A stretch of 64,000 nt of DNA from Escherichia coli (GTDB lineage: Bacteria; Pseudomonadota; Gammaproteobacteria; Enterobacterales; Enterobacteriaceae). The notes beneath the pieces were generated by a model. That model had not been told where the DNA came from and searched no databases. It saw only the letters and a program-made list of their open reading frames with translations. The number at the start of each line of letters is the position of its first letter. The stretch's first letter is position 1. Below are positions 1 to 9,811 of the stretch, in pieces. The stretch lies in assembly GCF_050320075.1 (NCBI RefSeq), contig NZ_CP190018.1; one strand, written 5' to 3'. The position numbers and the translations under genes were made by a program.

Positions 1-256
1 ACATTTTTATATCTGTCAGGTTACTTCATTATGAAAACTGATCATCATCGTTGTTTTTGTTGCAATAGTAGAATACGCGTATTTATTCCTCCATCTCTAT
101 TAATAACGGCAATAAACTGTTCACTTCACTGATATTTAAAATATGTATCCTTTTCAAGCTGTTCAGCGGCGTAAGAAAAAGTATTAATTATGAATTCGAT
201 GATTTAACCATATCTGTCTGATTGGTAATCATCCGTGATTAATGCTGGTCTATTGA

Positions 257-1177
257 TTACGCCAGAACCCTCTCTAGCTTATTCACCGCCGCCACATACT
301 TCGCCGGATTTTTATCTTTAAGCACCGCCAGATTGCGTTGCTTCCAGCGAATAGCCGGAAGATGCTGAATTTCAGGATAGCGATACCGCGACCAGTCAGG
401 GCTGTTTTGCTTAAAACTGAGCAAGAACTCGCGATCCAGATCCGTAAGATGTGACTTCAACGCCTGCGGCAGCAAAGTCGTTACTGACAGAAGCGATTCC
501 AGCGACGTTTCCTGTTGCGTCATCCCTGAAAATTCCTGCGCGTACAACGTGGCGATCCGCTCTGTATCCCAGTTTGGAGCCAGCAACTCGGCGATGGGGC
601 GGGGATGGCCTGCCAGATAACAAAGAAAACCGTCAAAGATCTCCCGCATCAGTCCCGGTTTCTCCAGCATATTCAGCACATCAAACAGATCGCGCGGGTG
701 CTGACGATCAAGCGCAGCGCAGATTTTACCGCCATAAAGATCCGCCAGCGAGACGACACTCATGGTGGTGAAGCCATACTCCATTTCCACACGTTCGCAC
801 ACAGGCATTTCTGCCGGAGGCAACAACAGCCCGCGCCAGACCGGGCTAACCTCGATCTTAATCTTTGCATCAGCGGTATTCACAATGATGCGCTTTTCAT
901 CCGCTTTATTTTCCTGCCGAATCGCGGTGATCCCCGGTCTGCCGTTCAGCGATGCAGTAATCCTCTTCAAAGCGTCGTTGATAGCCGCCAAATCAGTATC
1001 GCGATCCGCAAAGCTCTTGTACGCCAGATCAATATCCACCGACAGACGGGGAAAATCCTGCACAAACAAATTGATTGCGGTGCCGCCTTTCAACGCGAAA
1101 CAGGACTCCTTCGCCACATACGGCAGAGCGGCCATCAACAGTTTGACCTGCCGGGCATAGCTATCACGCAGATCCAT
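257..1177 (-). CDS. abiEii: AbiEii-like nucleotidyltransferase toxin (type IV TA / abortive infection)
   Basis: 306-aa ORF; N-terminal 'KGGTAINLF...DIDL' nucleotidyltransferase-type motif typical of AbiEii/DUF1814; 14-nt overlap with upstream partner gene. Confidence 0.65.
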   Translation of the reverse strand: MDLRDSYARQVKLLMAALPYVAKESCFALKGGTAINLFVQDFPRLSVDIDLAYKSFADRDTDLAAINDALKRITASLNGRPGITAIRQENKADEKRIIVNTADAKIKIEVSPVWRGLLLPPAEMPVCERVEMEYGFTTMSVVSLADLYGGKICAALDRQHPRDLFDVLNMLEKPGLMREIFDGFLCYLAGHPRPIAELLAPNWDTERIATLYAQEFSGMTQQETSLESLLSVTTLLPQALKSHLTDLDREFLLSFKQNSPDWSRYRYPEIQHLPAIRWKQRNLAVLKDKNPAKYVAAVNKLERVLA

Positions 1178-1967
1178 CTTCGACTCCTTCCGGTTTAAAT
1201 GCGCGTGGAACAGTAATTTGATAATCCGGCTCCAGCCAGCCGCCGGGTATGATTTGCCGCTTTCCCGTACCTGTTTCTATACCGCTTTGATCAATATACT
1301 GAAAATAAGGGTGTCCATTACGCCGGGCAAGGTAAAGCATCACCCGGTTGGTTTTAACCGAATGGCTGGCGCGAAGCAGTGCCTGCAATTTGCGTGGGCT
1401 GAGAAGATTCAACCCCTGAAACAGAGCATCGGCATGTTCGAACGAGATTAACGAAGGAACGCCGCAGGCGATCTCATACGCGGCCAGTTCCGGAACACTG
1501 CCTGCTAACTGGCGGTCGCCAATTTTCAGTTCCGTAGTAAATGGCGTTACATCAGCGGTAAGGCCTGACGTATACAGCGTGACAAACGTTGCGGATTGTT
1601 CAAAGGCAGAAAACCATCCCGGCAGTTTGACGTAAGCCGGAAGCGCGAGCCAGACCTGCGGCTTACCCTGTTCGGTATAGTGCGCATGACCCTGAAGCGC
1701 AAGGCTGGTTAGCCCCGCCACCCGAACAGGCTTTTCCCACTGCGATTGCAGGCAGTAAACCGCATCCACCCAATCCGGTTCACGACCCGTCCGGCAGTAT
1801 ACGCCGTGAGCGATCCGCCTGAGCCAGCCATTCTTCACATAGAGATAAGAGAGCTTACGATCTATGCCGTTGCGGGTAAGCCATGACTGGAGCAGCACCT
1901 GGCCGGGTAGCGTGTGCTGCATCAGCCAGTTTAGATAGTTTGGCAACTGTCGCCTCTGAATAGACAT
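1164..1967 (-). CDS. abiEi: AbiEi-like antitoxin/transcriptional regulator
   Basis: 267-aa ORF immediately upstream of and overlapping abiEii; size and operon position typical of AbiEi; assignment rests mainly on context. Confidence 0.5.
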   Translation of the reverse strand: MSIQRRQLPNYLNWLMQHTLPGQVLLQSWLTRNGIDRKLSYLYVKNGWLRRIAHGVYCRTGREPDWVDAVYCLQSQWEKPVRVAGLTSLALQGHAHYTEQGKPQVWLALPAYVKLPGWFSAFEQSATFVTLYTSGLTADVTPFTTELKIGDRQLAGSVPELAAYEIACGVPSLISFEHADALFQGLNLLSPRKLQALLRASHSVKTNRVMLYLARRNGHPYFQYIDQSGIETGTGKRQIIPGGWLEPDYQITVPRAFKPEGVEDGSA

Positions 1968-2261
1968 TAGTACAAATATTTAAACCAGTGTAGATTCAGG
2001 GATACGCCACAGCAAGAAATAGTTTACTTATTCCTCATTTTGTCGACTAAAAATCGACATTAAACAAAAAATTCAAACTTAATCACTTTCGGGAAAAATG
2101 TGACAAATATATGCTCGGACTGGTTGCGGGGAGCGTGTAACATGGATACAAATCAAAATTATTGCCAGCCTCACTGATGGATTACTGGTGTCAAGAGCCC
2201 CCCTTCGGGCATGAAACGGCTGGCTAATTCTGTACAGACTGTAATCTAAGGACGATAACGC

Positions 2262-5200
2262 ATGACATATCAGGCAATTTTCACTGGCTGGGATGATCTG
2301 ACGATTGAAGACCTTCTGGTCGCTTACCGGAAAGCAAAAGCCGATAGCTTCTTTGAGAATACATTTCCTGTTGCTATCAAATTTGCCGAGTATGAGCAGG
2401 AATTACTTGAAAACCTGCAAAAACTCTTAGATCTTTTGCAGAGCGAAGATGGATTCAGTAGCAATAAGAAGTTGATTGGCAAATTTCGATTGTTACCGAA
2501 AAAATTAACCACAAAGAAAAAACATGAATCCCAAAATGGACACGTCCACTTTTCTAATCCTAAACGAGCAGCCGACCATTTATTTAATAATTTTGATCTG
2601 ATACCAGAGTTTCGTATTATTGGTGACTTCCCGGTTGATAGTCACATTATCTCTGCACTATGGATTAACATGGTCGGGCATAAATTTGATGCCAGCTTAG
2701 ATAACTGTTGCTATGGCGCGCGGCTAAAGCGTATTCGTAATGATGAATTATTTAGCAATGAGCAGGATAATCCATTCCATATCAGTGCCGTGGGTTCTTT
2801 TAGCCCCTACTTCCAGCCCTACCAAAAATGGCGTGGTGATGGCTTAAAAGCTATACGTGACGAGTTGGAAAAAGATCGTGACATTATCGCCGCCTCACTG
2901 GATTTAAAAAGTTACTATCATTTTATTGATCCACTGGCTATAACCTCTGATGATCTCTATAACACACTAAACATAAAACTGACTGAGGATGAAAAAGCGT
3001 TTACTGCACAGTTAGCAGTATTCTTAAAGCACTGGTCTGACGGCGCAGCGGCATTTGGAAAGAAAATAGCGTACAAAACACCTGTTATTAATGGTGGTCT
3101 GGTCATTGGATTAACAGCCAGTCGGATCATTTCAAATATATTGCTACACCATTGGGATAAATTAGTCATTGAAAAACTATCACCAATTCACTACGGTCGT
3201 TATGTCGATGATATGTTCCTTGTAATACGCGATACAGGGACAATTACTAATAATCACGAATTTATGTTATTGCTGCAAGATAGGCTTGGCAATGATTGCG
3301 TTTATTTGAAAAACGAGCAAAAACAAATATGGCAAATACAGCAGGGCGAGCATTTCCAGGGTAAGACCACCATCCAGTTACAATCCGATAAGCAAAAACT
3401 TTTCGTGCTTCAAGGGAGGGCTGGAATAGACCTGCTCGACAGTATCGAAAAGGAGATCTACGAGCTTTCTAGTGAACACCGCTTGATGCCTTCACCGGAT
3501 CAACTGGAACACTCCACCGCAGCTAAAGTCCTTTCCGCTGCCGGTAGTGTAGGTGAAAATGCCGATACTCTGCGCCGTGCGGATGGATTAACCATTCGTC
3601 GTTTGGGCTGGTCACTGCAATTACGCTACGTTGAAACACTGGCACGAGATCTGCCTCCAAGTGAATGGAAAGAACAGCGGGAAGAGTTTTATCAGTTTGC
3701 CTACAACCATATTCTTAGGGCTGATAATCTATTTGCACATTTTAGTTATCTGCCAAGGCTGCTTGGCTTTGCTATCAGTATGAATGAATGGCAGCACGCG
3801 GAAAAAATTGTACTTAAAGCTTACGAATCCATCAACCTGTTGGCATCGGTGATTACTTCAGGTAAGGAAGTGAATATAAATGGTTGCAAAACTCGAGCAG
3901 TAAATGATCTTTGGCGCTGTATAAAAGGCACATTAAGCTGGCTATTTGTTGATGCAGCGACACGATATTACAGTCCTGACAGATTATTTCTTGATAAACG
4001 TTCAAAGAAAGAAGAGTGCCTTGCGGATACATTTTTTAATCATATTTCACAAAGTCTGACGAATCTAAAGGATTTACTGGATCTTCGCTTTGATTCAGCA
4101 GATTTTTATTTAAAAGCGCCATTGGTAGCTCGAGCTGATTTAGCAAAGGAACCTTATAAACAGATCGTAAAGAGTCAGTCGGCAGAAAAACTTGTTAATC
4201 AGCGTGATAGTAAAAAAGAAGTTAAAATACTGAAATTAATGAGCGACTCATCGCTTATTGATATTGACGTTATTAAGCTATTTTTGAAATCAACCAAGAA
4301 TACCCGACTGGAAAAAGTGGCTAAAGGAAATCGTAAGAACGAAAGTTACCTACCTTACATTTTCCCTACACGTCCTTTAACACCCGCTGAAATATCAGAA
4401 CTGGCCCCCGAATGTGTTGGATTACCCTCCACATCCGACAAAAAACCAGATGAGAGACCGTCCACCATTTGGGCAAAATATACTCAAGCATTACGCGGAG
4501 TATGGATCAAACCGACGTTGCTAGCATCGGAGCAGGACTCAGATGAAGCGACAAAAAAAGCTCGGCCTAAGAAATTCATTCATATTGGCACAGACAGGAA
4601 ACATAAAGTTGTCGTTGCGCTAACCAGCATTAAAACAGAGGAGGACGACTGGGCTAAAATGGCCTGCAATAAATCTAACTTGTCCCGTTCAAGGTACCAG
4701 CGGATTTCTGAACTGGTTAATGCAACATTGAAACTATCTCCTAAACCTGATTATGTTTTATTCCCTGAGCTTTCAATCCCGTTACGCTGGGTTAACAGTA
4801 TTGCTGATCGTTTGAGTTCGGCGGGTATCAGTCTAATTGCGGGAACAGAATACCGCCACTTAGACGATAATCAACTGAAGAGTGAGGCCGTACTTGTCCT
4901 TTCAGATAACAGACTCGGCTATCCAGCGAGTGTCAAAATATGGCAACCCAAGCTGGAACCCGCCGTAGGTGAAGATGAGGCATTATTTTCAATTTATGGT
5001 AAGTCTTGGGATTCGACACTTAATGTTAAACAACGTAAGCCGGTATATATTCATCACGGCGTCAATTTTGGCGTTATGATTTGCTCTGAACTCCAGAATA
5101 GTAAAGCGAGGATCCGTTTTCAGGGCGCACTCGATGCATTAATGGTATTGAGCTGGAATAAAGATCTAGATACGTTTGCATCGTTGATTGAATCAGCAGC

Positions 5201-5471
5201 GCTGGATATTCATGCCTATACTATTTTAGTGAATAACCGAAAATACGGCGATAGTCGCGTACGTTCCCCGGCAAAAGAACCCTTTATGCGTGATATTGCT
5301 CGTGTGAAGGGCGGTGATAATGACTTTGTGGTCGCTGCAACGCTGGATATCGACTCGTTAAGGGCATTTCAGAGCAGGGCAAAACGCTGGCCTAAAGGCG
5401 GCGATAAATTCAAACCGTTACCTGAAGGATTCCAGTTGGCAAAGAACCGCAAAAAGCTACCGCCAAAATAA
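2262..5471 (+). CDS. Reverse transcriptase-nitrilase fusion protein (defence-associated RT, DRT type 1 / UG1-like)
   Basis: 1069-aa ORF; RT motifs A 'SLDLKSYYHF' (aa ~211-220), B 'NGGLVIGLTASRIISNILL' (aa ~277-295), C 'YVDD' (aa 314-317, nt 3201-3212); C-terminal carbon-nitrogen hydrolase signature 'FPELSIP' (E836) and 'GVMICSE' (C941); divergent from AbiE pair. Confidence 0.7.
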   Translation: MTYQAIFTGWDDLTIEDLLVAYRKAKADSFFENTFPVAIKFAEYEQELLENLQKLLDLLQSEDGFSSNKKLIGKFRLLPKKLTTKKKHESQNGHVHFSNPKRAADHLFNNFDLIPEFRIIGDFPVDSHIISALWINMVGHKFDASLDNCCYGARLKRIRNDELFSNEQDNPFHISAVGSFSPYFQPYQKWRGDGLKAIRDELEKDRDIIAASLDLKSYYHFIDPLAITSDDLYNTLNIKLTEDEKAFTAQLAVFLKHWSDGAAAFGKKIAYKTPVINGGLVIGLTASRIISNILLHHWDKLVIEKLSPIHYGRYVDDMFLVIRDTGTITNNHEFMLLLQDRLGNDCVYLKNEQKQIWQIQQGEHFQGKTTIQLQSDKQKLFVLQGRAGIDLLDSIEKEIYELSSEHRLMPSPDQLEHSTAAKVLSAAGSVGENADTLRRADGLTIRRLGWSLQLRYVETLARDLPPSEWKEQREEFYQFAYNHILRADNLFAHFSYLPRLLGFAISMNEWQHAEKIVLKAYESINLLASVITSGKEVNINGCKTRAVNDLWRCIKGTLSWLFVDAATRYYSPDRLFLDKRSKKEECLADTFFNHISQSLTNLKDLLDLRFDSADFYLKAPLVARADLAKEPYKQIVKSQSAEKLVNQRDSKKEVKILKLMSDSSLIDIDVIKLFLKSTKNTRLEKVAKGNRKNESYLPYIFPTRPLTPAEISELAPECVGLPSTSDKKPDERPSTIWAKYTQALRGVWIKPTLLASEQDSDEATKKARPKKFIHIGTDRKHKVVVALTSIKTEEDDWAKMACNKSNLSRSRYQRISELVNATLKLSPKPDYVLFPELSIPLRWVNSIADRLSSAGISLIAGTEYRHLDDNQLKSEAVLVLSDNRLGYPASVKIWQPKLEPAVGEDEALFSIYGKSWDSTLNVKQRKPVYIHHGVNFGVMICSELQNSKARIRFQGALDALMVLSWNKDLDTFASLIESAALDIHAYTILVNNRKYGDSRVRSPAKEPFMRDIARVKGGDNDFVVAATLDIDSLRAFQSRAKRWPKGGDKFKPLPEGFQLAKNRKKLPPK

Positions 5472-5633
5472 GAAACTGATTTTCGCTATTAATAATCAGG
5501 GTATTTTTGCGTGAGATGTTGGTAAACATGATGTAGCCCTTGCCACTCATGACCAATCGCAGTATCTTTCTCCCGCGCCTGCAAAATCAGGCGTCGGGAT
5601 TAGCCTCCTGAAGAAATCTTATCGGCGACACAT

Positions 5634-5654
5634 GACGCGCCAGCGTCTTTTTTT
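5634..5654 (+). terminator. Rho-independent terminator downstream of RT-nitrilase gene
   Basis: Hairpin gacgc-gcca-gcgtc followed by a run of 7 T. Confidence 0.5.
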
Positions 5655-5817
5655 GTGTTGTTCGCACGGTTACATCTCAATGGTGGGCCGGGCGGGGGCG
5701 TCGCAAGACGCGCCAGTGTCCGATAAGGCTGGTAAGGCTAACCCTGCCCGGTTCCACCACCCGCGAGATTAGCCTCTCCGGTGGTGGCTTGAACACCCAC
5801 TTATCGGAGGTTGCCCT

Positions 5818-6288
5818 ATGGCTACAATCCTCACCACTGACAGCGATTTACTCGATCTATTGACCGTCCCCTTCAATGCCACCACGGATTTCACTGTCCT
5901 TGCTGACTACTGCGCCCGCTTTGCCGAAACCCTGATTGAAACCGACGATCCAGCGCTACGACTGGCGCTCTGCGGGCGGCTTCACGCGGCTCTTGCGCTA
6001 CTGCAACCCACACTACACGACCCCATCCCACCGCATCTTACCGAAAGCCTGACCGTGGATACCCTTCCCGCCACACCAGAGCACTTTATTTCCGAACCTG
6101 ATTCCTTGTGCGAATACTGCCTCGCACTACTCCAGCTTCTGCTGGAACGTCCGGCGGAACCAAAAATGGAGCAAACCCTGACCGGGCTGCTGTGTGAGCT
6201 GGTCTGGTATTTCACGGAAGGACTCAAAGCCCCACGCTGGCTGCGTACCGCCGACGGCGTAAAATTTATCAGCGAGGTGGCCGCATGA
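5818..6288 (+). CDS. Hypothetical protein (156 aa), no family recognised
   Basis: Clean ORF preceded by GGAGG-like SD; Leu/Ala/Thr-rich acidic protein; preceded by a GC-rich repeat-structured leader. Confidence 0.4.
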
Positions 6289-6425
6289 TGCAACAGGACT
6301 GGCATTCCGCCGACATTATTGCGGTGCTGAAAAAGCGGGGAACGCCTCTGGCGGCACAGAGAAAAACTCATTGCGGAAGCGCTGTAAATATCGCCAGAAA
6401 TCATCTGGCCTTCAAGGTACTTTGA
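6285..6425 (+). pseudogene. Ner/Nlp-like HTH regulator, N-terminal fragment
   Basis: ATGA-coupled to previous ORF; first ~24 aa '[24 protein letters not shown]' match Ner/Nlp family N-terminus, then diverges and terminates after 46 aa. Confidence 0.35.
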
Positions 6426-6637
6426 TAGCAAAGGCAAGCAGGCTGGTTCAGTCCAGTGTTTCTCTTCTTGCATTTTCAGAAATGGGAGGCTGGGAGTCTA
6501 TCGAAATGGTTCGTCGATATGCTCACCTCGCGCCTAATCACCTTACCGAACACGCACGGCAAATAGACTCAGTCCTGAACCCATCGGTCCCAAATTTGTC
6601 CCAGTCAAAAAATAAGGAAGGTACTAATGATGTGTAA
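6371..6637 (+). pseudogene. Tyrosine integrase 3' fragment (C-terminal catalytic-Tyr region only)
   Basis: Translation '[31 protein letters not shown]' parallels the C-terminus of the intact lambdoid integrase at 54542-55702 ('[31 protein letters not shown]'); no N-terminal or core domains present. Confidence 0.6.
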
Positions 6638-6667
6638 CTTATTGATTTTAATGGTGCGATAAGAGGA
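6638..6667. repeat. Degenerate att-like sequence (relic of tRNA-Thr 3' end junction)
   Basis: 'cttattgattttaatggtgcgataagagga' vs 'ctacttgatttaaatggtgccgataatagga' at the int-tRNA junction 55703-55733; ~85% identity, same position relative to integrase stop. Confidence 0.5.
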
Positions 6668-6789
6668 ATGAATATTGCAAGTTAACGCATTGATTTATAA
6701 TAGATTATTATATTCAAAAAATATAACTATACACATATCTATACACACTGCGCGCATCGCTTGTTTTTCGCACAATTAAAAATAAGAAA

Positions 6790-7092
6790 AAAGTTTTTTT
6801 TCGAAAGAACTGTTCACACTGTTCACCTTTCTGTTTTCTCCTTTTATTTCAGTTTGATAGGTGGTGAATAATGGGTGAATGGTGAACATTCGATTCTTCA
6901 CCTCCGGCATTCTGCCGGTGTGACTCATACCGGTGATTAATCCCCCGTACTGAAATCACACAGGGAGAAAAAAAGTTTTTTTTGATTTGATTGTTCACAC
7001 TGTTCACCTTTCATTTTTCTCTTTTAATTTCAGTGTGATAACGGGTGAATATACGGTGAAGGGTGAACAGTGGATTGTTCACCTTCGGGGAA
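6790..7092. repeat. P4 crr-like cis replication region: two ~120-bp direct repeats with TGTTCACC/GGTGAACA octamers
   Basis: Unit 1 ~6790-6900 and unit 2 ~6970-7092 share 'aaagtttttttt...ttgttcacactgttcaccttt...ttcagt(t/g)tgata...gggtgaa...ggtgaaca'; octamer is the P4 alpha-binding iteron. Confidence 0.65.
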
Positions 7093-7100
7093 TTCAGGGA

Positions 7101-7126
7101 TAAAAAAAGACCGGCAGATGCCGGTC
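7101..7126 (-). terminator. Rho-independent terminator after alpha
   Basis: Hairpin gaccggca-gatg-ccggtc followed by T-run on minus strand, just downstream of alpha stop. Confidence 0.6.
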
Positions 7127-7142
7127 AGATGAGTCATGATGG

Positions 7143-9476
7143 TCAGGTTGTTGCAGGGTCGTCACATTTTGGCAGCCAGTCGCCGTAGCTTTCCTCTTTC
7201 AGCGTCAGGTTGGTCTGTATCCCCTGTTTGGTATGGCGCTTCTCGTAATTCAGTCCGTATTCCTTCAGCATCACCGGCAGCCCCAGCCCGAACATTTTCA
7301 GACTGAGTACATTCCGGTAGCCGTTTGCCTCCATGTAGGCCAGATAGGCGTGATAGAGGTATTTACGGTAATTACGCGGGATGATACTGGCGTTCCCCAT
7401 ATACATGCCGCTGGTCTGCGGCAGGGTTTCCAGATAGCCGATAAAATCAAACGTCGGGTCGGCATCCCGTTTGATGTTCAGCGCCTCGTCTGAGTTCTGC
7501 TGGGACTGAAGCAGTGACCGGGCGAGCATCGGGTCGCTGAACTTCTGCATCAGGTGACGCACGATGACCGCCAGCTCGCGGGTGATTTTGTCCTTAAGCT
7601 GCGGGTCGCGCTCCTGCGGGGCTATCTGTTCCGGGAAGTGAATAATCACCCGCCGGCGTGACACGCCGCCGCTGCGGTCGGTGAAGCGCATCGGGTTATT
7701 GTTCACGGCCAGAATTACCGCCGGGATATGCGTGGAGTATGCATCCCGGTATTTCGGGTCAACGGACACCGCATCGCCGCCGGTGATGGCCTTGAGTCCG
7801 GCACCGTCGCCGCTCCATTTTTCCTGGTCCGGCAGGCGTATCAGTGAGAAGCCAGTTAACGCGGCACGTTCACGCGGGGATTCCAGCGTCTCGATGGTGG
7901 CCGACGTGGCGTTATCCTCCCCGGCCAGCAGGGTGGCTATTTCGGCCATGATACTTTTGCCGCTGCCGCCGGGACCGGTCACCTCCAGAAAGAGCTGCCA
8001 GTCGTAGCGGTTTGCCAGCACCATAAACAGTGCGGCCAGAATCACGTCGCGTTTTTCCGCACGGCCACCGGCGGCACGGTCAAGCCAGCGCCAGAACGCG
8101 GGGGCGTGGGTCTCCAGCGTTTCACCGTCCACCGGCGGGGTGAAATCCACATCGCACAGGGTGCGCATCCAGTGTGACGGACTGTGCGGGTGGAACGTGC
8201 CGTTCTGCGTGTCGAGCACGCCGTTACGAAAGCCAATCAGGCGGCGGGAGGGGGCTTCCTGCTGCGGAATAATCAGCTTCAGGGTGTCCACCACGGAGGC
8301 CACCTTCCCGGAGGAGAACGGCGCGCGCAGACGCTGAAACAGCCCGGCCACATCCCGGGCAAAGTCCTGTGGTGGCAGCACCTTCCAGACACCATTTTCA
8401 TAACGGGACAGAAGCTGGCCGTTGGCATCGACCGCGAGCGCCTCGCCGTAATGCTCATAGATACGCATGGCCTTTTCGCTGGTACTCATGGCGGAAAACT
8501 CCGCTTCGCTCATGGTGTCGAACGGGCTTTCAGCCGGTGGCCGGATGGCATCATAAATGGCCTTACGGGTGGCTTCCCCGCCGTACTGCGTGAAGGCATC
8601 ATTCCAGTCACCGAAGACCGGCGGCAGGGCAACAACGCCCTCACACGCATCTGCGGCTGCGGCGGCTTTTTTCTGGCCGTCACCGCTGAGGTCACGGTCT
8701 GCGGCAAGGACAATCTGACAGGCCGGATGCTTCTGCCGGGCAAGGCTGGCCAGAGAAAGGAGGTTCACGGAAGAAAGCGCCACCATCACCGTTTCACCGG
8801 TCAGGTGATGTACGGTAAGTGCGGTCGCGTATCCCTCCGCTATCCACAGACGTTTTCCGGCCTGATTCTGTCCTTCAAGGGTGTGACAGGTGCCCCTGAC
8901 CTGTCCGCCTTTCAGGGTGCGCTTACGGCCGTCAGCACTGATTAACTGAAGGTTAACCAGTTCGCCGCTGTCGTCATACAGTGGCACCACAAGGTCACCG
9001 GCACGCCAGCTCACGCCACCGGCTCTGTGTGTGCCGGTCAGCATCCGGCATTCCCGGCCGGGAAAGCCCTTGCGGGTCAGGTAGGCGTTACCGGTTCCGG
9101 GACGGGTTTTCGCCATCAGGGTTTGTGCCAGTGCGGCGGCGTTCTTCCGGGCAGCGTCTGTTTCAGCACCGGCGGCAGCCGTCACTGCCGGGTCAGCCGG
9201 GGGCAGGCTGCCGGTCACGGCAGCCACCTTTGCTGCCGCGTCGGACGGGGAAACACCAAACACCTTTTCAACCAGTTTCAGGCCGTCACCGGCACCACAC
9301 TGATTGCAGTACCAGGTGCCGCGCCCCTCCCTGTCATCAAAACGGAAGCGGTCACTCCCGCCACAGACCGGACAGGGCTGATGACGGTTTTTCAGCACCT
9401 GAATCCCCAGCGCCGGGAGAATACGCGGCCAGTGGCCGAGCGCATGGCTGACGGTGGCGGTTACGTTCATTTTCAT
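7143..9476 (-). CDS. P4 alpha-type primase/helicase replication protein
   Basis: 777 aa; N-terminal zinc-binding 'CPVCGG...CNQCG' primase region; Walker A 'GPGGSGKS'. Confidence 0.85.
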   Translation of the reverse strand: MKMNVTATVSHALGHWPRILPALGIQVLKNRHQPCPVCGGSDRFRFDDREGRGTWYCNQCGAGDGLKLVEKVFGVSPSDAAAKVAAVTGSLPPADPAVTAAAGAETDAARKNAAALAQTLMAKTRPGTGNAYLTRKGFPGRECRMLTGTHRAGGVSWRAGDLVVPLYDDSGELVNLQLISADGRKRTLKGGQVRGTCHTLEGQNQAGKRLWIAEGYATALTVHHLTGETVMVALSSVNLLSLASLARQKHPACQIVLAADRDLSGDGQKKAAAAADACEGVVALPPVFGDWNDAFTQYGGEATRKAIYDAIRPPAESPFDTMSEAEFSAMSTSEKAMRIYEHYGEALAVDANGQLLSRYENGVWKVLPPQDFARDVAGLFQRLRAPFSSGKVASVVDTLKLIIPQQEAPSRRLIGFRNGVLDTQNGTFHPHSPSHWMRTLCDVDFTPPVDGETLETHAPAFWRWLDRAAGGRAEKRDVILAALFMVLANRYDWQLFLEVTGPGGSGKSIMAEIATLLAGEDNATSATIETLESPRERAALTGFSLIRLPDQEKWSGDGAGLKAITGGDAVSVDPKYRDAYSTHIPAVILAVNNNPMRFTDRSGGVSRRRVIIHFPEQIAPQERDPQLKDKITRELAVIVRHLMQKFSDPMLARSLLQSQQNSDEALNIKRDADPTFDFIGYLETLPQTSGMYMGNASIIPRNYRKYLYHAYLAYMEANGYRNVLSLKMFGLGLPVMLKEYGLNYEKRHTKQGIQTNLTLKEESYGDWLPKCDDPATT

Positions 9477-9490
9477 GGTGTTGTTCTCCT

Positions 9491-9811
9491 TCAGTGCAGT
9501 ACCGGCGCTTTTATGTGACGGGCACAGAGTTCATCCATCACAACCAGCCCGAGAAAGGACAGCGACGGCGCGGCCTTCAGGGGGCCGGATTCCATTAAAT
9601 CTTCCAGCAGGGCACAGGCTATCTGACGCCCTTTTTCCTCACCGTGCTGGCGCAGATAAAAGCCTTCCAGCTCAGCGGCGATGGCCGCCTCCAGTGATTC
9701 AAGGGTGAGATGCGGGTAGCGGTGCTGACGTTCGCACACGGTCAGCCAGGCACAGGCGACAGCGCGACGGTAAAGGGCTGCGCGTAAGACGGGCGGTAAG
9801 GGTGTTTTCAT
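9491..9811 (-). CDS. P4 orf106-like hypothetical protein
   Basis: 106-aa ORF between alpha and orf151-like gene, matching P4 gene order and size. Confidence 0.5.

Follow-up and report, generated by a model that had tools for sequence, protein, structure and literature searches.

Introduction

Fusions of a reverse transcriptase (RT) to a nitrilase domain have been described as anti-phage proteins of bacteria, and here we report on a member of this kind in Escherichia coli. The gene is an open reading frame (ORF) at positions 2262-5471, on the plus strand, of a 64,000-nucleotide (nt) stretch of the E. coli chromosome (contig NZ_CP190018.1 of assembly GCF_050320075.1), and this whole stretch is called the window below. 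An earlier reading of the same DNA, referred to here as the original prediction, had taken the gene for a defence-associated reverse transcriptase (DRT) of type 1, or UG1. The kind of system, its role in defence and a mechanistic model for RT-nitrilases have already been published, and the gene shows no new kind of system. As described below, it almost certainly belongs to another family, UG5-large, and probably constitutes an anti-phage system by itself.

UG1 and UG5 are both class 3 UG/Abi RTs and represent sister groups, with UG1 proteins of 1200-1300 amino acids (aa) and UG5-large proteins of ~1000 aa (PMC9226505). UG5-large was named DRT11 in a 2025 preprint (10.64898/2025.12.16.694600) and 'DRT5L' in a 2026 paper (PMC13275509). 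An 'RT-nitrilase + 1TM' anti-phage system of E. coli E101 was reported by Rousset et al. 2022 (PMC9122126), and the 'DRT5L' of Neville et al. 2026 is this E101 protein, as seen from the supplementary table (PMC13275509). Defence by the DRT11 of Sinorhizobium meliloti RMO17 needs the DD motif of the RT and the nitrilase cysteine and no transmembrane (TM) protein; it depends on the multiplicity of infection in an abortive-infection-like manner, and no non-coding RNA (ncRNA) was seen by RNA-seq (10.64898/2025.12.16.694600).

The mechanism has been worked out for the UG1 protein DRT1, in which untemplated, protein-primed DNA was shown in 2026 to serve as a structural 'antitoxin' for the nitrilase (PMC13275509). 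Synthesis is primed from S402, and the short, A-rich adduct drives the formation of tetramers and filaments via the nitrilase domains, while the nitrilase site is covered by a domain-swapped C-terminal lid. Defence requires both catalytic activities and is abolished by mutation of C1116, by K1219A and by C-terminal deletions. The outcome is abortive infection, from which phage T4 escapes through dda. The DNA product in that work is covalently bound to the protein (all PMC13275509).

The RT-nitrilase of the window belongs to UG5-large

The ORF listing of the window contains one ORF with an ATG start codon at 2262-5471, which encodes a protein of 1069 aa. The gene and its parts, all on the plus strand, are as follows.

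2201-2261: 5' leader with a ribosome-binding region, the sole upstream stretch conserved with orthologous loci
2262-5471: complete ORF of the putative UG5-large RT-nitrilase, protein identical to RefSeq WP_001521910.1
2262-3491: RT domain (fingers, palm and thumb), aa 1-~410
2895-2924: RT motif A, SLDLKSYYHF, aa 212-221, with Asp214 at 2901-2903
3093-3146: RT motif B, GGLVIGLTASRIISNILL, aa 278-295
3201-3212: RT motif C, YVDD, aa 314-317 (Y314, V315 and the catalytic aspartates D316 and D317), aligned with the YVDD of DRT1
3468-3473: Ser403-Ser404 in SSE[R/W/H]RL[L/M]P, candidate priming site
3492-4568: alpha-helical repeat (solenoid-like) middle domain, aa ~411-769, with flexible loops at aa 428-440, 579-609 and 757-768
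4569-5381: nitrilase-superfamily (C-N hydrolase) domain, aa ~770-1040
4767-4769: E836 of the nitrilase catalytic tetrad, in FPELSIP
4950-4952: K897 of the tetrad
4971-4973: E904 of the tetrad
5082-5084: C941 of the tetrad, in GVMICSE
5382-5468: C-terminal tail, aa 1041-1069, with the motif K1051-P-L-P1054-E-G1056-F1057 at 5412-5432

All motifs quoted in the original prediction were located at these positions by a script check. RefSeq labels WP_001521910.1 only as 'RNA-directed DNA polymerase'. As a Pfam-A scan of the protein gave no significant domain, neither RVT_1 nor CN_hydrolase, the domains were established via PADLOC profiles and structure prediction; an NCBIfam scan yielded RT matches below threshold only.

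The PADLOC profile RT_UG5-nitrilase (PDLC03780) matched the protein from end to end (E=0, 1034.5 bits, residues 1-1068 on profile positions 9-901 of 907), and additional matches were obtained with RTasNitrilase (E=2e-43, residues 783-1058) and RT_UG5_small (E=2.8e-39, residues 15-413). By comparison, Drt1a (PDLC03745), the best RT model outside UG5, scored 88.6 bits over residues 151-409 only, and PDLC02171 (DRT type 1) scored 34 bits over residues 940-1045 only. The further characteristics of UG5-large were also found: RT and C-terminal nitrilase form a single polypeptide of about 1000 aa, the YxDD and Glu-Lys-Glu-Cys residues are intact, and the gene is located in a defence island or mobile element. 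Based on the scores of 1034.5 versus 88.6 bits and the length of 1069 aa, we regard the protein as almost certainly a member of UG5-large and not of UG1, an assignment made from family-profile scores and length.

The original prediction had favoured UG1 on the ground of size. A placement of the gene in UG1/DRT type 1 would fit (i) the shared architecture of RT, helical domain and C-terminal nitrilase, (ii) the result of a sequence search of solved structures, in which DRT1 (PDB 9YFD) was the only relative found (E=1e-6; E=6e-28), and (iii) the observation that UG1 nitrilases nest within the UG5 radiation (10.64898/2025.12.16.694600). Nevertheless, the Drt1a profile covers only part of the RT, 1069 aa falls outside the range of UG1 and matches UG5-large, and the middle domain has no alignment to DRT1. 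Membership in UG1 thus appears extremely unlikely. The remainder of the earlier view holds: the protein is an RT of the defence type whose palm is complete, it carries a domain of the nitrilase superfamily at its C-terminus, and the gene lacks a retron, group II intron or long terminal repeat context. Rfam detected no retron or group II family in 1-12000, and the combination that defines retrons, group II introns and diversity-generating retroelements, namely an RT profile above cut-off plus an associated structured RNA, was not found.

Conservation and prevalence

A word-indexed search recovered 992 homologues of the protein at E<=1e-5, the closest 120 of which are full length and 69-100% identical, and an exhaustive search recovered 2014 representatives of 50%-identity clusters at E<=1e-3. 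The ratio of nonsynonymous to synonymous substitution rates (dN/dS) was ~0.05 against the orthologues in Salmonella and in L007, an enterobacterial contig (the loci compared in this study are numbered with L), with synonymous sites near saturation. From these homologues, cluster representatives and the dN/dS of 0.05, it is clear that the ORF is a real, selected gene and no chance product, and that it is under strong purifying selection. The GC content of the gene is ~41%, versus 50-55% in its flanks.

Residues D214, N292 (motif B), Y314, D316 and D317 of the RT were invariant in 52 diverse homologues of 26-64% identity, and so were E836, K897, E904 and C941 of the nitrilase as well as S404, K1051 and P1054; P1052 and G1056 were conserved in at least 90% of them. 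The same invariant residues are also fixed in 121 close homologues. Glu836 and Cys941, which had been singled out from the start as catalytic positions of the nitrilase, both fall within the invariant tetrad. V281 in motif B (GLVIG, in place of GLPIG in the wider family) was considered as a sign of decay and dismissed, being clade-specific and present in 120 of the 121 close homologues.

The gene with its immediate flanks occurs in 259 of 5426 complete E. coli genomes (~4.8%), at least 99% identical, whereas the E101-type gene occurs in 33 (0.6%). The lineage in the window is a third UG5-large lineage besides those of E101 and DRT11, and the commonest in E. coli. Its clade comprises proteins of ~1067 aa from Enterobacteria, Vibrio, Marinobacter and Alteromonas, with an identity of at least 69%. 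The gene in the window is chromosomal. Two E. coli records filed as plasmids, CP088862.1 (35 kb) and NZ_CP146678.1 (64 kb), contain this RT gene in a form 99.9% identical, and may be either mis-assigned chromosomal fragments or evidence of mobility. A tblastn search against a phage collection gave no match.

Domain architecture

The structure of the protein was modelled confidently by AlphaFold2 with the 52 diverse homologues (pLDDT 86.1, pTM 0.90). Two regions had been left unassigned in the original prediction; the model places the first 200 residues in the RT domain and resolves the middle region as an alpha-helical repeat domain, which is also the nature of the corresponding region in DRT1 (PMC13275509). 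The C-terminal region displays the features of the nitrilase superfamily (PF00795), an alpha-beta-beta-alpha sandwich with a Glu-Lys-Cys(-Glu) centre, and C941 aligns with C1116 of DRT1. Likewise, the tail K1051-P-L-P1054-E-G-F aligns with K1219-T-Q-P1222-A-G-F of DRT1, G1056 and F1057 corresponding to G1224 and F1225. The tail is predicted from this alignment to act as an inter-protomer 'lid' over the nitrilase active site.

Search for partner genes and a template RNA

To see which genes accompany the RT-nitrilase, we compared 10 loci obtained via an exact-protein look-up and 72 species-level loci from GTDB representative genomes. No homologue of the TM partner of E101 was found by tblastn in the 64-kb window (best E=1.3), and when the ORFs of 40 aa or more in 1-7200 were scanned by hydropathy, just two antisense or spurious TM ORFs came up, leaving no credible one beside the gene. 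A downstream TM partner, an optional feature of UG5-large that DRT11 does not have either, is thus missing from the gene in the window. An E101-type TM gene was present in 0 of the 72 species-level loci, and a TM-containing ORF starting within 250 nt downstream in 11 of the 78 loci with enough flank. The latter count agrees with the published 31 of 299 UG5-large members with a TM partner (clusters 85/1858; PMC9226505); the TM partner is optional. The genes directly upstream of the RT vary from locus to locus and are mutually non-homologous (a Kiwa-like pair, a PDC-S06 ATPase, a PtuA-like ATPase, hsdS or a type IIG enzyme). As the TM partner is absent and the upstream neighbours differ between loci, the RT-nitrilase system is a single gene without a conserved partner.

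Two sets of P4-type immunity RNAs were identified by Rfam.

5562-5764, plus strand: c4-a1b1, isrK and C4 antisense RNA
10927-11167, minus strand: second c4-a1b1/isrK/C4 copy, in an intact P4-like satellite

The first copy, which marks the remnant backbone of a decayed island, is overlain by a RefSeq coding sequence for an 'ash family protein'.

The structured RNAs directly 3' of the gene at 5562-5764, or alternatively the 294-nt spacer upstream of it, might be taken for a dedicated ncRNA that the RT copies, the complementary DNA then being the signal or effector as in retrons, DRT2, DRT3 and DRT9. Several other DRTs do use ncRNA templates. Nevertheless, the gene has no conserved flanking ncRNA, and nothing resembling a dedicated template RNA was found. 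The isrK/C4 RNAs were rejected as a template, as they belong to the P4-type immunity region of the island backbone, of which the intact satellite holds the second copy, and are found 3' of the RT elsewhere in L007 alone; the loci of Salmonella, Citrobacter, Yersinia and Vibrio do not have them there. As for the spacer, only the last 60 nt in front of the ATG are conserved with the orthologous loci, and in several relatives the RT begins right at the end of the gene before it or within that gene; the downstream flanks are not conserved. The lack of Rfam retron and group II families mentioned above argues in the same direction, and so do the published data: DRT5L and DRT1 make DNA untemplated, with RNase A present (PMC13275509), and DRT11 has no flanking RNA and tolerates an upstream deletion (10.64898/2025.12.16.694600). 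Copying of a dedicated RNA is therefore very unlikely.

History of the E. coli locus

The gene is divergent from an intact AbiE pair, as the original prediction had noted, and the two genes of the pair overlap each other.

257-1177, minus strand: AbiEii (PADLOC, E=4e-116)
1164-1967, minus strand: AbiEi (PADLOC, E=6e-80)

The decayed state of the island, likewise noted before, is corroborated by RefSeq pseudogenes for a helix-turn-helix (HTH) protein, an integrase, ykgR and paoB/C. Only remnants follow to the right of the RT: the C4/isrK block, a 156-aa ORF that L007 also has, an HTH gene with a frameshift and part of an integrase gene.

In Salmonella, Citrobacter, Yersinia and L007, the relatives of the gene stand last in a tightly packed block, hsdR-hsdM-hsdS-(kwaA-kwaB-like)-RT, and in Salmonella and L007 AbiEi lies divergently upstream of this block. 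The window matches the Salmonella locus up to 1994, just past the start of AbiEi, and the match resumes at 2201. Approximately 7.5 kb of the Salmonella locus (L002 362-7938), which carry hsdR-hsdM-hsdS and the Kiwa-like kwaA/kwaB, are missing in E. coli; the breakpoints of the deletion are 1994/1995 and 2200/2201, and a non-homologous segment of 206 nt stands in place of the block. Homology to L002, L008 and L009 starts at 2201-2206 of the window and homology to L007 at 2222, 1995-2200 having no counterpart there, and in Salmonella, Citrobacter and Yersinia the kwaB-like gene before the RT ends within the conserved leader. Since the homology to Salmonella extends to 1994 and again from 2201, with ~7.5 kb missing in between, the order found in E. 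coli, with AbiEii-AbiEi and the RT pointing away from each other, is by sequence comparison a deletion derivative of an island of AbiE, type I restriction-modification (RM) and RT.

An AbiE module also occurs near the RT in a Vibrio locus (L005), and an AbiEii-type toxin adjoins the DRT11 of S. meliloti. A general link between AbiE and UG5-large was rejected, as tblastn with the E. coli AbiEi and AbiEii found them in 0 of the 72 species-level loci. Farther to the right, an apparently intact P4-like satellite occupies 7143-16685, with genes for a primase (7143-9476), an Icd-like protein, ash, an HTH protein, delta/ogr, psu and an integrase. Its psu-int defence hotspot, described by Rousset et al. 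(PMC9122126), contains a gene for a HEPN-domain protein.

Possible mode of action

Because the protein retains the residues for both catalytic activities, the lid motif and a serine that is invariant in the family, the most likely interpretation is that the ORF is a single-gene anti-phage system operating by the full mechanism proposed for DRT1, and we consider this interpretation probable. The RT would make short, semi-random, A-rich single-stranded DNA in an untemplated manner, copying no RNA. Synthesis would be primed from a hydroxyl side chain of the protein itself, for which we propose Ser404, and the DNA would stay covalently attached. The adduct would then drive the assembly of tetramers and filaments via the nitrilase domains, and this assembly would license the nitrilase while keeping it closed via the domain-swapped C-terminal lid (K1051-x-x-P-x-G-F). 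A cue from the replication stage of the phage may lift the block, whereupon the freed nitrilase would hydrolyse some essential C-N compound, and the infected cell would die or stall before phage release (i.e., abortive infection).

We hypothesise Ser404 to be the priming residue on the following grounds. It is the only invariant Ser/Thr outside the active sites, it lies 87 residues past the YVDD aspartates (77 in DRT1), and equivalent motifs are found in E101 (SSAFRFLP), DRT5S (SSDFLLLP) and DRT1 (T401-S402-S403-IPER). As S402 lacks conservation in the other class 3 DRTs according to the authors of the DRT1 study (PMC13275509), the proposal rests on the alignment made here. In that alignment, MAFFT --add puts T401/S402 of DRT1 on S404/E405, so that S402 is one residue off, and hmmalign of DRT1 to the family profile left the S402 region unaligned.

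The misplacement by one residue and the published statement on S402 both weigh against a DRT1-like mechanism, and several other points do so as well. In the AlphaFold2 model, S404 does not lie in a disordered loop but terminates a confidently predicted helix. Filament formation, lid autoinhibition, S402 priming and Dda dependence have been demonstrated for DRT1 only (PMC13275509), and the alignment of DRT1 to the protein in the window is limited to the RT core and the nitrilase. The characterised relatives within UG5-large are distant, too: identity to E101 is 26% in the RT and 30% in the nitrilase, with a middle domain not alignable by BLASTP, and DRT11 is 29.8% identical over 99% of the length, with 1005 versus 1069 aa. 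For the E101 system, a need for the TM partner and activity at room temperature only have been reported (PMC9122126, PMC9226505), which implies that requirements differ between members. Finally, the E. coli locus has lost an upstream operon that formerly included the RT, and a consensus scan of 1968-2261 found no clear sigma-70 promoter, the scan itself being uninformative.

The last points could also mean that the gene in E. coli is an orphan, silent or without function, which lost its operon, promoter or partner and now hitch-hikes in a decaying island. The pseudogenes of the island, the deleted 7.5-kb hsdRMS-kwaAB block, the spacer without a consensus promoter and the dependence of E101 on a TM partner (PMC9226505) would all be expected in this case. 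On the other hand, the ORF is intact and at least 99% identical in 259 complete genomes, all catalytic and family-invariant residues are kept, and most members of the family have no TM partner, DRT11 and DRT1 working alone. The dN/dS of 0.05 against the orthologues also speaks against an orphan, albeit it mostly reflects selection before the deletion. We consider such a silent or non-functional state unlikely.

The surroundings of the relatives raise a different idea, that the RT-nitrilase is coupled to methyltransferase-based defence (type I RM or BREX), for instance as a fail-safe when a phage neutralises restriction. In 10 of 21 loci of the clade with at least 60% identity (L002, L007-L010, L014, L017, L019, L023 and L026), an orthologous type I RM system lies immediately upstream on the same strand, and its HsdR (73-94% identical) and HsdM (82-96%) parallel the identity of the RT. 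In a clade of ~30% identity, the RT is found between the halves of a split BREX pglX in 7-8 species (L050 8205-14841; also L053, L059, L062, L066, L081, L085 and L088), with brxC-like and pglZ-like genes nearby; the N half corresponds to positions 1-621 and the C half to 610-1173 of the 1174 positions of the PglX profile, and the gaps measure -9 to +15 nt. The genes concerned are separated by 3-15 nt or overlap. We found no description of the RM-operon or the split-pglX pattern in the searchable literature. Nevertheless, defence genes cluster for non-functional reasons, and clustering in islands could explain both patterns. Furthermore, what lies between hsdS and the RT differs between loci (nothing, a Kiwa-like pair, a PDC-S06 ATPase or a PtuA-like ATPase of 588 aa), an RM system is missing from the E. 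coli locus and from about half of the clade, and DRT11 and DRT1 protect when cloned alone. Coupling of this sort is thus unlikely, and we are equally doubtful of its generalisation, in which UG5-large RT-nitrilases would not be independent systems but a second line of defence built into methylation-based immunity. If it were true, the disabling of restriction or BREX by a phage would set off the DNA adduct and the nitrilase, and in E. coli the gene would either be an orphan devoid of its RM sensor context or have become autonomous. A corollary would be that Ser404 is a family-wide priming residue homologous to S402 of DRT1, contrary to the published statement (PMC13275509).

Value of the gene as a model

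Returning to the interpretation of the ORF as a single-gene system of the DRT1 type, the gene represents the commonest type of UG5-large in E. coli, ~4.8% of genomes versus 0.6% for the E101 type that has been studied. Since it comes without a TM partner, it would be a convenient E. coli-native model to ask whether priming, filaments and lid autoinhibition generalise from UG1 to UG5, whether Ser404 primes, and what the nitrilase hydrolyses. The label 'RNA-directed DNA polymerase' and the missing Pfam match hide a two-enzyme defence protein. With the general mechanism already in print, the value of this locus lies in the prevalence of the lineage in E. coli, in the predictions for S404 and the lid, and in the recurrent embedding of the family in RM and BREX operons.

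Comparison with known systems

We located the E101 protein, taken from the supplementary sequence, in an E. coli genome inside a P4-like hotspot. It consists of 958 aa, versus 1069 aa in the window, and its gene is followed by an overlapping gene for a single-TM protein of 229 aa (RTasTM), the partner reported to be required, of which there is no counterpart in the 64 kb of the window. Both proteins match RT_UG5-nitrilase from end to end (828 bits for E101 versus 1034.5), and they share the YVDD of the RT, the SS-x-x-R-x-LP motif, the E/K/E/C tetrad of the nitrilase and a C-terminal P-x-G-F tail. Both genes reside in E. coli mobile-element islands with P4-type backbone genes. E. coli M19 (L006 9001-11877) has an E101-type RT with an internal stop codon (Trp in the published DRT5L), annotated as a pseudogene, next to an intact TM gene.

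In its organisation the gene resembles the DRT11 of S. meliloti RMO17, a single-gene RT-nitrilase without a TM partner, with YVDD, the nitrilase Cys and an AbiEii-type neighbour, albeit DRT11 is located on the pSymA megaplasmid and the gene in the window on the chromosome. UG5-small ('DRT5S') has a homologous RT region, an SS-x-F-x-x-LP motif and untemplated DNA synthesis (PMC13275509), and differs in that its nitrilase is encoded in a separate ORF, whereas it is fused to the RT in the protein of the window. DRT1 (Gao et al. 2020; PDB 9YFD) is likewise a class 3 RT with the order RT, helical repeat and nitrilase, and corresponds to the protein in the window in C941/C1116, in K1051/K1219, P1054/P1222 and the G-F of the lid motif, and in an SS motif some 80-90 residues past YVDD; it belongs to another RT clade and is longer, with 1229 aa.

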